DNA from: a virus
Lineage: Duplodnaviria > Heunggongvirae > Uroviricota > Caudoviricetes
DNA: 64,000 nucleotides
Strand: one strand, 5' to 3'
IMG/VR virus record: IMGVR_UViG_2639762884_000001
This document shows, one piece after another, positions 16,081 to 17,103 of the stretch. Numbering within the stretch: position 1 is the stretch's first letter; every line of letters begins with the position of its first letter. The notes beneath the pieces were generated by a model. It was not told where the DNA came from. It ran no database searches and saw only the letters and a list, made by a program, of their open reading frames with translations. The position numbers and the translations under genes are program-made.

Positions 16081-16202
16081 CACAACGTTGAGGCCATTAC
16101 ATTTTTATCAATTCTAAGGTTCTATTCACAGAGATACCGGCGAGCGTTGATATGTAACATGTTGGGCAAACATTCAATCGGAGTAGTGGCCTCAACGTTG
16201 TG
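16081..16202. repeat. long-armed inverted-repeat element A (candidate small structured RNA)
   Basis: 16-nt arms cacaacgttgaggcca / tggcctcaacgttgtg around a ~90-nt loop; arms and loop start resemble element B at 17026-17103. Confidence 0.45.
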
Positions 16203-16465
16203 AAGACAGGATTGTTGTGTAGGTTTAACCACTGTTGCCATTGGTGCCTGTTTTCACAACAAATGATTCCATACATCACATTGTATAAATTACAAAGTAG
16301 GTGCTGTCCTCAAAAACATCATCTACTTAAAGATTTTGCCTACTATTGAGCGAAGTCGAAAGCGTCTGGCACTAACGAAAAGTGCAAGTAGCGGTGCGTT
16401 TCCTGGCAGAAACTAAACCGTCGCGATTGGCACTGTTGAGTAATAAATACTGGCAGTGTCGAATT

Positions 16466-16540
16466 GATGGTGTAGCTCAGCGGTAGAGCAGTTGGCTGTT
16501 AACCAACTGGTCGGTGGTTCGAATCCACCCACCATCGCCA
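16466..16540 (+). tRNA. tRNA-Asn (anticodon GTT)
   Basis: Clean cloverleaf: acceptor GATGGTG/CACCATC, D-arm GCTC/GAGC, anticodon loop CTGTTAA, T-loop TTCGAAT, CCA end. Confidence 0.85.
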
Positions 16541-16545
16541 ATTTA

Positions 16546-16632
16546 GGAGAGTTAGTCCGTAGAGGTAGCGGGGTAGACTGTAAATCTACTGTCATTGCGA
16601 CTCGGGTGGTTCGACTCCATCACTCCCCACCA
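16546..16632 (+). tRNA. tRNA-Tyr (anticodon GTA), long variable arm
   Basis: Anticodon stem-loop GTAGA-CTGTAAA-TCTAC; T-arm GGTGG-TTCGACT-CCATC; CCA end; 5' acceptor/D-arm boundary folds imperfectly by hand. Confidence 0.6.
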
Positions 16633-16636
16633 AATT

Positions 16637-16712
16637 GCCGGTTTAGCTCAGTTGGTAGAGCGCCTGCCTTGTAAGCAGGATGTCAGCGGTTCGAGTCCGT
16701 TAACCGGCACCA
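16637..16712 (+). tRNA. tRNA-Thr (anticodon TGT)
   Basis: Acceptor GCCGGTT/AACCGGC, D-arm GCTC...GAGC, anticodon loop CTTGTAA, T-loop TTCGAGT, CCA end. Confidence 0.85.
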
Positions 16713-16936
16713 ATACAACGATAAGATCATTACGGTTAATCGTCGTTCATGTGCACAATGACTGGTCGAAAGGTAGTGATCTTACCGTTGTGGTGGATTC
16801 GCAGACTGATGCGATAGCTTTCTTGGATGTTAGGGAAATGCGGCCGCAAATCTTCCCTTTCGCGAGCGGTGATCGTCCGTAGTCCTAATTGGCTGCACCG
16901 TATGCCGGAGATTCAGTACCGGCTATCACAACGGCC

Positions 16937-17023
16937 GGAGAGTAGGGAGCATGGTGCTCAAGCGGTCTTGAAAACCGTCCCATTGCGCAAGCGATGATGG
17001 TTCGATTCCATTACTCTCCGCCA
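16937..17023 (+). tRNA. tRNA-Ser (anticodon TGA), long variable arm
   Basis: Acceptor GGAGAGT/ACTCTCC, anticodon stem-loop GCGGT-CTTGAAA-ACCGT, T-arm GATGG-TTCGATT-CCATT, discriminator G, CCA. Confidence 0.65.
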
Positions 17024-17025
17024 GA

Positions 17026-17103
17026 CACAGCGTTGAGCGGTTTGGCCTTTTAATCAACTCGATTAAGACTCCGCTAACATAAACCAGACCGCTCAACGCT
17101 GTG
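17026..17103. repeat. long-armed inverted-repeat element B (candidate small structured RNA)
   Basis: Perfect 16-nt arms cacagcgttgagcggt / accgctcaacgctgtg around a 46-nt loop, directly after tRNA-Ser. Confidence 0.45.

Follow-up and report, generated by a model that had tools for sequence, protein, structure and literature searches.

Long-stemmed RNA hairpins next to tRNA genes: a conserved family found in several unrelated groups of coliphages

In rRNA operons, leader-trailer duplexes of about two helical turns enclose 16S and 23S rRNA within an untranslated, multi-product precursor that also carries tRNAs. E. coli RNase III, which needs roughly 20 bp of duplex and makes staggered cuts with 2-nt 3' overhangs, excises both rRNAs from these stems. 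The 3' external spacer of a tRNA operon is the source of the sponge RNA 3'ETS-leuZ, which is released by RNase E and ends in a terminator. In murine gammaherpesvirus 68, each TMER begins with a viral tRNA-like gene that is followed directly by long stem-loops; a tRNA-processing nuclease splits the two, and a nuclease of the RNase III family then cuts. Extra stable RNAs have long been known from the tRNA clusters of T4 and T5, and the sequence records still list their function as unknown: T4 rnaD and rnaC lie 1 and 6 nt past the last tRNA, and the T5 record places eight such RNAs inside the tRNA cluster. The theta ribozymes of gut phages (minimal HDV-like ribozymes) are cis-acting RNAs within ~5 nt of a tRNA, and a role in tRNA 3'-trailer processing has been proposed for them (PMC10879173).

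The locus described here lies in a 64-kb stretch of DNA (the window, by which we mean the whole stretch analysed). It is a single untranslated tRNA unit of ~1.5 kb, belonging to an SSU5-like phage-plasmid, and four long-stemmed hairpins (I1, A, C, and B) all fall within it. We conclude that these hairpins belong to a conserved, previously undescribed family of long-stemmed RNA hairpins that lie by the tRNA genes of several unrelated coliphage groups. From sequence comparison, the case for an element that would act at the RNA level on the tRNA strand is well supported, and the most likely roles are those of processing stems or stable small RNAs. The features of the unit and its downstream border are as follows.

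15920 to 16010, plus strand: hairpin I1, distantly related to the rest of the family and placed in the operon leader, with arms of ~22-27 bp and a loop of ~37 nt
16081 to 16202, plus strand: element A, a 20-bp stem closing an 82-nt loop
16466 to 16540, plus strand: tRNA-Asn (GUU), by ARAGORN and Rfam
16546 to 16632, plus strand: tRNA-Tyr (GUA), by ARAGORN and Rfam
16637 to 16712, plus strand: tRNA-Thr (UGU), by ARAGORN and Rfam
16710 to 16796, plus strand: element C, the third family member, with a 39-nt loop, overlapping the CCA of tRNA-Thr
16937 to 17023, plus strand: tRNA-Ser (UGA), by ARAGORN and Rfam
17026 to 17103, plus strand: element B, a 20-bp stem closing a 38-nt loop
17138 to 17166, plus strand: weak terminator-like hairpin (TTGCTA / TAGCAA, a 6-bp stem and then eight T), by direct reading
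17180 to 17201, no strand assigned: GC-rich stem-loop AAAGGGGC-TTCG-GCCCCTTTTT, by direct reading and the ORF list
17209 to 18429, minus strand: 406-aa open reading frame convergent to the tRNA unit, from the ORF list

A first-pass annotation of this DNA had marked A and B as two related inverted repeats with 16-nt arms and similar loop starts, the second lying 3 nt after the tRNA-Ser CCA. Direct reading bore out these positions and sequences. The arms of A (CACAACGTTGAGGCCATTAC at 16081-16100 and GTAGTGGCCTCAACGTTGTG at 16183-16202) form 16 perfect pairs, followed by T16097·G16186 (U·G in RNA) and three further pairs. Those of B (CACAGCGTTGAGCGGTTTGG at 17026-17045 and CCAGACCGCTCAACGCTGTG at 17084-17103) have the same layout of 16 perfect pairs, one U·G, and three more, and both stems extend in this way to 20 bp. 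Within the basal 12 nt the two elements differ by a single transition that is compensated in the opposite arm (A-T to G-C), and their loop starts (TTTTTATCAATTC in A, TTTTAATCAACTC in B) are identical at 11 of 13 positions. B begins at the third nucleotide past the CCA, with GA as a 2-nt spacer. The A loop contains inner hairpins and conserved motifs (a U-run, CCACAGAG, AUGUUGGGnnnAACAU, and AAUCGG), and the B loop contains a small inner hairpin and the conserved single-stranded AAGACUCCGC. As RNA, A folds with a minimum free energy of -46.7 kcal/mol (z = -6.7) and B with -40.1 kcal/mol (z = -9.9), both far below shuffled controls (0 of 200 shuffles as good in either case).

Only four long-looped hairpins in the window have arms of 20 bp or more, and all of them fall inside 15920-17103. 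C and I1 join the two elements seen at first, and all four members lie in the one untranslated tRNA unit. A pattern search of the whole window with the arm consensus found only A, B, and C, its remaining matches being at chance level (12 found, 9 expected). The rarity of such hairpins, together with the z-scores of A and B, excludes chance as the origin of these inverted repeats. The arms of C are (CCAA)TACAACGATAAGATCATTAC and GTAGTGATCTTACCGTTGTG(GTGG), its base pairs with the CCA of tRNA-Thr, and its minimum free energy is -32.6 kcal/mol (z = -4.8); among close relatives it is present, absent, or replaced. I1, with arms GATGAAGTAACAGAATGGGCGGTTGGT and ACTGACCGCCCATCCTGTTACGTCATT, has orthologues in every SSU5-like relative, and a related form (CACAACAGGTAAGGGCGC...) is found in P7 and D6. 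Neither I1 nor A has an intact tRNA directly upstream.

The consensus terminator scan made no call at either structure downstream of B. The stem-loop at 17180-17201 is probably a bidirectional terminator serving both the tRNA unit and the convergent 406-aa frame, for which only a PHROG match of unknown function was found and no Pfam match. The hairpins themselves were rejected as intrinsic terminators: no U-tract comes after any of them (3' flanks: AAGACAGG for A, GGTGGATT for C, and ATAGACAA for B), their loops measure 38-82 nt, the scan made no call, and the terminators sit farther downstream. It could be speculated that the hairpins shield the transcript or control its elongation, whether as attenuators, as terminators, or as bulk that keeps Rho off a long untranslated RNA. 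An untranslated RNA of ~1.5 kb would suit such a role, as dense structure would limit Rho loading, and boxA-like words (UGCUCUUA / UGCUCUUU) occur in some right arms of P7 and of the CMS-2020a SCU-175 genome. However, none of A, B, and C in the window contains the boxA-like word, which is hidden in duplex where it does occur, no U-tract follows any hairpin, and shielding would need no perfect 20-bp stem, no fixed start at a CCA, and no conserved base sequence. We therefore regard this explanation as highly improbable.

Covariance-model searches assigned A, B, C, and I1 to no RNA family, as Rfam 15 gave no match to them in the window even at permissive E-values. In the relatives' hairpins, Rfam returned only weak mir-497 matches (27-30 bits against a gathering score of 62), and these matches to a microRNA precursor reflect generic hairpin shape. 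The N4-like hairpins gave only a weak mir-4677 match and two weak Y-RNA-like (YrlA) matches. ARAGORN found four tRNAs in the window and the Rfam tRNA model (RF00005) matched the same four at E-values up to 10, which rules out a tRNA or tRNA-like identity for all four hairpins, in agreement with the first-pass folding of A and B. The records of P7, Cyrano, SSU5, and N4-like phages that we fetched carry no annotation at the hairpins, and we found no description of them in the literature on small RNAs of P1, SSU5, pHCM2, and pMT1. A preprint on the P1vir transcriptome does not resolve the hairpin region (bioRxiv 10.64898/2025.12.28.696737). A tag-like frame lies just upstream of the hairpins and is conserved. 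ARAGORN called no tmRNA there at its default setting and gave permuted and standard calls with forced-looking tRNA-like domains at 80% of its threshold; Rfam tmRNA models matched it weakly (14-24 bits against gathering scores of 47-84).

The stems are kept, with compensatory changes, in divergent relatives among the SSU5-like and P1/P7/D6-like phage-plasmids. The 11 distinct orthologues of A retain 19 pairs, compensatory changes having occurred in 3 of these, and every one of the 13 one-sided changes yields G·U. All 20 pairs are kept among 13 distinct orthologues of B, 2 with compensatory change. Across the family (20 distinct arm sets), 97.8% of cells are paired, a value partly guaranteed by the collection of copies as inverted repeats, and 11 of the 20 pairs have changed on both sides. 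None of 500 shuffles reached these family-wide values, and sliding the partner strand by 1-3 columns left only 30-53% of cells paired. Gene conversion from arm to arm at the DNA level could mimic such covariation, and the sole argument against it is the asymmetry of the wobble pairs: 70 wobble cells are G·U on the sense (tRNA) strand and 13 on the antisense strand or, counted by hand as independent events, ~17 against ~5 (one-sided binomial p ~0.008).

Conservation is distributed unevenly along the hairpins. Paralogues share the basal 12 bp (CACARCGYTGAR), and it is the inner stem that covaries. The Watson-Crick core of the stems has a mean of 19.6 and a mode of 20 pairs and so clusters at two helical turns, with shorter stems of 13-18 bp in some relatives and in one N4 hairpin. 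Loop motifs are conserved over relatives from E. coli, Salmonella, and Klebsiella. In A the U-run and CCACAGAG are kept and an inner hairpin covaries (AUGUU/AACAU in some, AUGUA/UACAU in others); in B, AAGACUCCGC stays single-stranded after an inner hairpin of variable sequence. The orientation of the A loop is the same in 25 of 26 distinct A-type sequences and inverted in the remaining one. In C-type elements of relatives the arms stay and the loop content is swapped wholesale.

The hairpins are also placed with precision. Of 225 hairpin instances, 108 start within -2 to +2 nt of the 3' end of the upstream tRNA, and the hairpin that follows the last tRNA lies at most 3 nt from its CCA in 77 of 81 loci, whichever tRNA this is (Ser, Asn, or an Asn anticodon variant). 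B-type hairpins begin 1-2 nt downstream of this last CCA. Such fixed positions, the z-scores of A and B, and compensatory changes in three phage lineages all speak against chance or neutral palindromes without function, an explanation that can practically be dismissed.

Nearly all of the ~100 viral loci are tRNA clusters of P1-like or SSU5-like phages, and tRNA content between the hairpins varies widely among them. A scan of 185,579 species-representative genomes, which covered the family apart from long-loop A-type copies, found one further true member, again in an SSU5-like tRNA context. The region is present in 258 of 5,426 complete E. coli genomes (~5%), as measured through the adjacent upstream tag-like stretch. 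The homologous tRNAs of an N4-like phage are accompanied by three hairpins with arms of 13-27 nt, each starting 1-3 nt past a CCA, and two of the three fold ~9 kcal/mol better on the tRNA strand; we consider these analogous to the A/B family. A pattern match by a tRNA in an unrelated phage contig (L019) was rejected, as its fold is not that of a family member.

One possibility raised by this placement is that the helices are pseudo-tRNA substrates of RNase P, the base of each stem mimicking the acceptor/T-stem stack so that a cut at its 5' edge would make the 3' end of the upstream tRNA, as happens between closely spaced tRNAs. Substrates of RNase P include the C4 antisense RNA of P1/P7 and the precursor of 4.5S RNA, which is hairpin-shaped, and the enzyme is also able to remove the terminator of leuX. 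The hairpins do take the place of a next tRNA at the 1-5 nt spacing of the cluster's tRNA-tRNA junctions, the most conserved part of the stem has the 12-bp length of an acceptor plus T-stem stack, and one N4 hairpin carries a T-arm-like UAGGUUCGAAUCCUA beside its 3' strand. On the other hand, an RCCA-like 3' tail follows none of the hairpins (the flanks read AAGACA, ATAGACA, and GGTGGA), a T-loop at 12 bp is missing from A, B, and C, and the stem continues unbroken to at least 20 bp. On balance, cleavage by RNase P at the hairpin base is a doubtful explanation.

The account that we favor, tentatively and as a quite possible one, is that the A/B family would serve as RNA punctuation of a polycistronic tRNA precursor, that is, as processing stems cut by RNase III, with the hairpin perhaps persisting afterward. 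Hairpins of 75-125 nt with a near-perfect basal stem of ~19-24 bp, four of them in this window, would be transcribed on the tRNA strand as part of the untranslated unit, I1 and A in its leader and B and C starting on or 1-2 nt past a tRNA CCA. Because the duplex abuts the CCA, the tRNA 3' end could be freed only by an endonucleolytic cut in the stem or at its base. RNase E acts on single-stranded RNA only, and strong stems bring most 3' exonucleases to a halt. A continuous two-turn duplex would be the substrate form of the host's double-strand-specific RNase III; the 20-bp stems, with their single G·U, have the ~20 bp or more of continuous double-stranded RNA that this enzyme requires. In older literature, RNase III reportedly takes part in the processing of T4 tRNA precursors. 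Cleavage would leave a short unpaired trailer for exonucleolytic trimming and would release a compact hairpin RNA that may persist as a stable small RNA, as in the T4 and T5 tRNA clusters. At the DNA level, a by-product would be that the conserved arms act as islands of homology at which phages exchange tRNA modules.

Some observations fit RNase III punctuation less well. Stems of 13-18 bp are short for RNase III, and this enzyme does not explain the conservation of the basal 12 bp because its sequence requirements are weak. The position of A and I1, with no intact tRNA before them, also counts against this account. A pure processing stem, moreover, does not need conserved loop motifs, and these motifs suggest that the released piece may carry something of its own.

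In another explanation, the hairpins would be stable small RNAs with their own function in trans (for example as a regulator, sponge, or decoy), and the stem would only protect the ends. Ordinary tRNA processing, with RNase P cutting at the next 5' end and RNase E in the flanks, would excise them incidentally. The conserved loop motifs of both A and B and the kept orientation of the A loop are consistent with it, as are the annotated stable RNAs of the T4 and T5 clusters, which are similar in position and size, and the location of B in the 3' external spacer upstream of terminator-like hairpins. However, a search of the window for a target complementary to the B motif gave 12 matches where 16 are expected by chance, C-type elements of relatives have had their loops replaced wholesale with the arms retained, and one would expect RNase III to cut a perfect 20-bp duplex, not to leave it whole. 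A function in trans as the main reason for the hairpins is thus somewhat unlikely in our estimate. The first-pass annotation had offered a stable RNA, a processing signal, and a recombination or homing site as roles, and this was supported in part: the first two, which are not mutually exclusive, would be roles at the RNA level, and an element at that level on the tRNA strand is well supported by the compensatory changes, the sense-strand G·U pairs, and the abutment on CCA ends.

The proposal of a homing site found no support, as no endonuclease gene is associated with the hairpins and the genome scan found no copies outside tRNA clusters. A recombination site survives in a weak sense only, in that homology between relatives breaks at the hairpin arms. 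A stronger version would make the hairpins cruciform or single-strand recombination sites at the DNA level (attC-like, inverton-like, or small mobile elements) that move tRNA cassettes. Several breakpoints favor this: homology with SSU5 stops ~11 nt past A, that with Y. pestis pMT1 ~4 nt past A, where caf1R follows, that with the CMS-2020a SCU-175 genome precisely where B ends, and that with P7 and D6 at the end of B's left arm. The swapping of C-type loops between retained arms, the widely variable tRNA content, an exact inversion of the A loop between its arms in one contig (L100), and a tyrosine recombinase gene 2 kb downstream of the hairpins also point in this direction. Yet homologous recombination alone predicts breakpoints at conserved islands, an exact start at CCA ends would be meaningless at the DNA level, and copies are confined to the tRNA clusters of these phages, the single further member from the genome scan included. 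The recombinase is a generic phage integrase (Pfam PF00589), and P1-like and N4-like carriers have no recombinase beside the cluster in the stretches fetched. A MITE or other small transposon was rejected, since neither target-site duplications nor flanking direct repeats were found at A, B, or C and almost all copies lie in P1-like or SSU5-like tRNA clusters. An integron attC site was likewise rejected: the right arm ends in GTTGTGA, whose T breaks the RRR of the R-box consensus GTTRRRY, the cassettes are tRNAs, there is no integron integrase, the only nearby recombinase is 2 kb off, and none lies in the fetched region of P7 and D6. Taken together, a DNA-level recombination site is very improbable.

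The hairpin family provides a new handle on the question of what the extra RNAs of phage tRNA clusters do, with clear covariation and a fixed position at tRNA 3' ends, in carriers (P1 and N4) that are both genetically tractable. If the stems are RNase III sites, they would reveal how phages complete the maturation of tRNAs with a CCA packed against a duplex, and the hairpins could serve as compact punctuation in synthetic tRNA arrays. The arms also coincide with mosaic breakpoints, among them the point in pMT1 where the Yersinia pestis F1 capsule locus joins, and this coincidence suggests how tRNA modules and neighboring cargo may move between unrelated phage-plasmids.

Among described systems, the stable RNAs of T4 (species 1 and 2, or rnaC and rnaD) and T5 (RNAI, RNAIII, RNAIV, RNA2H, RNAX, and the tRNA-like RNA1, RNA2, and RNA3) resemble the hairpins in being non-tRNA RNAs that lie in or end a phage tRNA cluster, on the tRNA strand and 0-6 nt from a tRNA. 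They measure ~70-170 nt (719 nt for RNAX). In the folds of T5 RNAIII and RNAIV, the 5' end pairs with the 3' end and so encloses 2-3 inner hairpins. However, the terminal stems of the T4 and T5 RNAs have 5-12 bp as compared to 19-27 bp here, and no likeness to the hairpins was seen in their sequences or in their predicted folds, compared by eye. In addition, T-arms are present in rnaC, RNA1, and RNA2 and a terminal CCA in RNAI and RNA3, whereas A, B, and C have neither feature, and the T4 and T5 RNAs are recorded as stable while the hairpins are known from sequence alone. We rejected rnaC and rnaD as homologues: rnaC is tRNA-like, rnaD has no long terminal stem, and the analogy is one of position only.

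B resembles 3'ETS-leuZ in occupying a 3' external transcribed spacer, between the last CCA and the terminators, and differs from it in that a search of the window for an RNA partner with complementarity to the conserved B motif found none. The TMERs differ in belonging to a eukaryotic pathway of Pol III and Dicer, with small duplex products and a silencing machinery for which this locus gives no evidence. Theta ribozymes are alike in position, B lying 2 nt past a CCA and C overlapping one. They differ in structure, being nested double pseudoknots (P1, P1.1, P2, P3, and P4) with a catalytic C that cleave themselves at their own 5' end, while A and B are plain end-paired hairpins. An HDV-like or theta identity was rejected, as pairing between the two terminal 20-nt segments precludes the pairing of P1 and P2, and no Rfam ribozyme model matched. 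The hosts also differ, with theta ribozymes in phages of Bacteroidota and Bacillota and the hairpins in Enterobacterales.

A broader picture, speculative and rather unlikely as a whole, would make the hairpins the phage counterpart of theta ribozymes, recruiting an enzyme where these cut themselves, and the analogue in bacteria of viral tRNA-pre-miRNA units. A perfect two-turn duplex on the CCA would hand tRNA 3' maturation to RNase III instead of RNase E, excised hairpins with their conserved loop motifs would act in trans on the host (for example against defence or translation functions), and shared arms would let P1-like myoviruses, SSU5-like siphoviruses, and N4-like podoviruses swap tRNA-hairpin cassettes. 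Together with the tmRNA-tag-like element, the 1.5-kb unit would then be a translation-manipulating RNA operon.

The RNase III sites of rRNA operons and of T7 and lambda early transcripts offer a further comparison. Relative to these, the hairpins enclose a cargo of only 38-82 nt, their duplexes are perfect and not interrupted by internal loops, and cleavage is putative. As in these sites, a long duplex forms from the sequences that flank a cargo, and the arms are conserved while the cargo varies.

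The tRNA genes of the window lie in a stretch (15,700-17,205) without a credible ORF. On its left are plus-strand genes (small ORFs and a homologue of DNA ligase), the last of which ends at 15690; on its right a 406-aa ORF converges on it from the minus strand. The first-pass annotation had described two inverted-repeat elements here, A and B, at exactly the coordinates we obtained. Our analysis confirms and extends that observation: a scan of the 64-kb window for long-looped hairpins whose arms reach at least 20 bp gave two more, C and I1, overlooked within the same 1.2 kb, and none beyond these four. 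Elsewhere in the window the arm consensus was not above chance. The features are:

15920-16010, hairpin I1, arms of 22-27 bp
16081-16100 and 16183-16202, arms of hairpin A, loop of 82 nt
16466-16540, plus strand, tRNA-Asn
16546-16632, plus strand, tRNA-Tyr
16637-16712, plus strand, tRNA-Thr
16710-16796, hairpin C, the base of which pairs with the CCA of tRNA-Thr
16937-17023, plus strand, tRNA-Ser
17026-17045 and 17084-17103, arms of hairpin B, loop of 38 nt
17138-17166 and 17180-17201, terminator-like stem-loops downstream of the hairpins
18636-18884, plus strand, glutaredoxin-like ORF, 1.5-2 kb downstream of B
19096-20199, plus strand, tyrosine recombinase (phage integrase family), 1.5-2 kb downstream of B

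Plasmid pTAir-3 has a similar annotated integrase in the same relative place. The stems of A and B are alike, with 16 perfect pairs, one U·G and three further pairs. As RNA they fold with energies of -46.7 (A) and -40.1 kcal/mol (B), which is 6.7 and 9.9 standard deviations lower than in dinucleotide-shuffled sequences, of which none out of 200 folded as well.

Smaller features accompany the hairpins. A short hairpin, TCGCAGACTGATGCGA (16799-16814), lies directly 3' of C, and this hairpin or its variants GCACAGGCTGATGTGC and GCGCAGACTGATGCGC recur directly after hairpins of the C and M3 sub-types in the window, P7, D6 and CMS-2020a SCU-175. Immediately 5' of tRNA-Ser there is another recurrent hairpin, CGGAGATYCAGYRCCG, with CACAAC after it. 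Given these recurrent hairpins, the spacer itself is modular. A 16-nt long-range complementarity (ATTATGTCGTTTATAC at 16018-16033 with GTATAAATTACAAAGT at 16283-16298) encloses A; it occurs in close relatives only and is thus without independent support. The right arm of B contains AGACC (17086-17090), the sequence recognized by EcoP1I, the type III enzyme of P1, and the nearly invariant U·G wobble (GGTTT, not GGTCT, in the left arm) removes a would-be second, inversely oriented AGACC-type site. Both are possibly a coincidence.

Approximately 100 nt upstream of I1 lies a reading frame resembling a tmRNA tag (15783-15818, plus strand; GCA AAC GAA GAA GTC TAT CTG GCA GTA GCC TAA TAA). It encodes ANEEVYLAVA, as compared to ANDENYALAA for the E. 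coli ssrA tag. The frame was kept in every relative, for instance in P7 (1046-1078), L007 (2584-2616) and Yersinia pestis pMT1 (~2086-2118), the differences being synonymous or conservative (ANEDTYLAVA, ANDNQYLAVA, ANDDLMMAAA, ANDDLMMVAA). Rfam tmRNA models aligned to it with scores far below threshold. ARAGORN at default settings found no tRNA-like domain nearby, BLAST found no similarity of the stretch to chromosomal ssrA, and PGAP annotated nothing at the frame. The element resembles a messenger-like domain that has been conserved but lacks a tRNA-like domain, and it is an intriguing neighbor of the hairpin family.

We scanned 15 annotated loci, and ~110 viral contigs picked up by an arm pattern, for tRNAs and long hairpins. 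The region matches the SSU5-like phage-plasmids CMS-2020a (98.6% identity) and Cyrano (98%). Partial matches were found in Klebsiella SSU5-like phages (~84%) and SSU5 itself (81%), and the P1-like P7 and D6 matched from tRNA-Thr to tRNA-Ser (93-95%), N4-like phages over the tRNAs (79%), and numerous plasmids, among them S. Typhi pHCM2 and pMT1, over parts of the region. The scan yielded 225 hairpin instances (74 distinct sequences), nearly all in P1-like or SSU5-like tRNA clusters, with Asn, Asn-Ser, Asn-Thr-Ser, Asn-Tyr-Thr-Ser, Arg-Thr-Ser-Met or other tRNA sets between them. The family is not a dispersed repeat. Among 185,579 species, with one genome each, there were three pattern matches, of which only one, located 3' of tRNA-Asn in an SSU5-like contig from Buttiauxella, is a true member.

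Several observations were made in these relatives. ARAGORN predicts a tRNA-Ser (UGA) at 2051-2137 of P7 (AF503408) that is missing from the deposited annotation; D6 annotates the equivalent gene. In L116 (1117-1191, minus strand) a "tRNA-His (GTG)" occupies the tRNA-Asn position and differs from the pHCM2 tRNA-Asn by one anticodon base (GTT to GTG), a difference that an anticodon shift or a sequencing error would explain. Just 3' of the hairpin after tRNA-Ser, upstream of a terB/tciA-like gene, P7 (2247-2362, 43 bits) and D6 (2266-2386, 39.6 bits) have near-threshold matches to the STnc100 sRNA family (gathering score 47). The right arms of several hairpins in P7 (1655-1672 and 2236-2256) and CMS-2020a SCU-175 (2860-2876) contain UGCUCUUA or UGCUCUUU, resembling the boxA antitermination word. 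This may be coincidence; in the window, none of A, B and C has the word.

The stems changed in ways that kept them paired. Orthologues of A, always located between an I1-type hairpin and tRNA-Asn, carry arm variants GGCC/GGCC (window), GGTC/GGCC (SSU5, pHCM2), GATC/GATC (another E. coli group) and GACC/GGTC (Klebsiella), and base variants CAC, CAT and CGC that each face GTG; these arm differences preserve pairing. Each of the 19 predicted pairs was kept in an alignment of 11 distinct A sequences, three of the pairs with compensatory changes, and all 13 one-sided changes gave G·U. In B orthologues 20 pairs were kept, two of them compensatory (GTTGAG/CTCAAC versus GCTGAA/TTCAGC). When 20 distinct arm sets covering all sub-types were aligned without gaps, 97.8% of cells were paired, a figure partly built in since copies were collected as inverted repeats, and 11 of the 20 pairs showed two-sided changes. 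The covariation score, for arm sequences that are related to one another, was 0.53 compared to 0.20 in shuffles (reached by none of 500), and sliding the 3' partner by 1-3 columns left 30-53% of cells paired.

Strand and position pointed to RNA. Transition mismatches in the stems were G·U on the tRNA-sense strand in 70 cells and on the other strand in 13 (~17 versus 5 independent events by hand count; one-sided binomial p ~0.008). Loop orientation was kept in all but one of 26 distinct A sequences. Nearly half of the hairpins (108/225) started within -2 to +2 nt of the upstream tRNA 3' end, and at 77 of 81 loci a hairpin lay within 3 nt of the CCA of the last tRNA, whether this was Ser (window, Klebsiella), Asn (pHCM2-type elements) or an Asn gene altered at one anticodon base (one contig). 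Such starts are meaningful only for a transcript. No U-tract follows any of the hairpins. We therefore read them as probable parts of the tRNA precursor RNA.

The N4-like phage AlfredRasser, whose tRNA cluster is homologous to that of the window, has three long hairpins, each starting 1-3 nt past a CCA:

1152-1245, arms of 24 nt, after tRNA-Thr
1382-1494, arms of 27 nt, after an unannotated tRNA-like 3' end
1582-1665, arms of 13 nt (perfect), after tRNA-Pro

In two of the three the tRNA strand folds ~9 kcal/mol better, and one has a T-arm-like UAGGUUCGAAUCCUA beside its 3' strand. The tRNA-like end before the second hairpin reads ...GGTTCGAGTCCAGACGCCGGAACCA; the fold of this hairpin is cloverleaf-like, in that a T-arm-like hairpin accompanies an "acceptor" stem of 27 bp. 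A hairpin on the CCA is thus found in three unrelated virion types.

The first-pass annotation had offered small stable RNAs, processing signals, or recombination or homing sites. The first two are supported at the RNA level and are indistinguishable from each other. As for recombination, homology between relatives does stop at the arms repeatedly: ~11 nt past A in SSU5, exactly at the end of B in CMS-2020a SCU-175, and at the end of B's left arm in P7 and D6. In pMT1 (2389-2506) the tag-like element, I1 and A are all kept and homology to pHCM2 and the window stops ~4 nt past A, followed directly by caf1R, a gene of the F1 capsule locus; the right arm of this A is CAACGCTGTG, like B-type arms. 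Hairpins of the C sub-type share their arms but enclose quite different loops. A dedicated recombination system is not supported, however, since we found no target-site duplications, no consistently linked recombinase and no copies outside tRNA clusters, and the elements do not fit the attC consensus. We read the breakpoints as probable recombination at short conserved islands. The inverted A loop occurs in the viral contig L100 (7638-7749), where the same arms and flanks as in contig L120 (8852-8963 when oriented) enclose a 76-nt loop that reverse-complements the L120 loop exactly save for one mismatch; the DNA between the inverted arms has been inverted.

How might a tRNA be freed from such a precursor? 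A duplex on the CCA, or 1-2 nt past it, would leave no single-stranded room for RNase E, and such a duplex would also block most 3' exonucleases. The tRNA 3' end would thus need an endonuclease to cut within the stem or at the stem base. Stem lengths cluster at two helical turns (Watson-Crick core: mean 19.6, mode 20), and E. coli RNase III takes substrates of this two-turn form; the enzyme also frees 16S and 23S rRNA from their leader-trailer stems. We tentatively favor RNase III as the most likely nuclease. It does not explain why the basal 12 bp are conserved between paralogues, and the main alternative is that RNase P cuts at the helix base. Cleavage, by RNase III or otherwise, would release a compact hairpin, and conserved loop features suggest that it may be more than debris: B keeps a single-stranded AAGACUCCGC 3' of a variable inner hairpin, and A keeps a U-run, CCACAGAG and a covarying inner hairpin. 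No target for the B loop motif was found within the window.

A comparison with RNA families, proposed alongside the original observation, gave no Rfam 15 match to the hairpins. Nothing is annotated at their positions in the P7, Cyrano, SSU5 or N4-like records, and our literature search found no description. Theta ribozymes, cis elements at most ~5 nt from phage tRNAs that are proposed to act in 3' trailer processing (PMC10879173), are a functional analogue with a pseudoknotted fold that the hairpins do not share. Among known elements, the stable RNAs encoded in phage tRNA clusters come closest. T4 rnaD and rnaC lie 1 and 6 nt 3' of the last tRNA, eight RNAs interspersed with the T5 tRNAs are annotated "stable RNA with unknown functions", and T5 RNAIII and RNAIV have paired 5' and 3' ends enclosing inner hairpins. 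In contrast to our family, these RNAs have much shorter terminal stems, and no likeness of sequence or, by eye, of fold was seen. The hairpin family is new in that it is undescribed, it belongs to a known kind of element, and it makes a minor puzzle of long standing cleanly testable.
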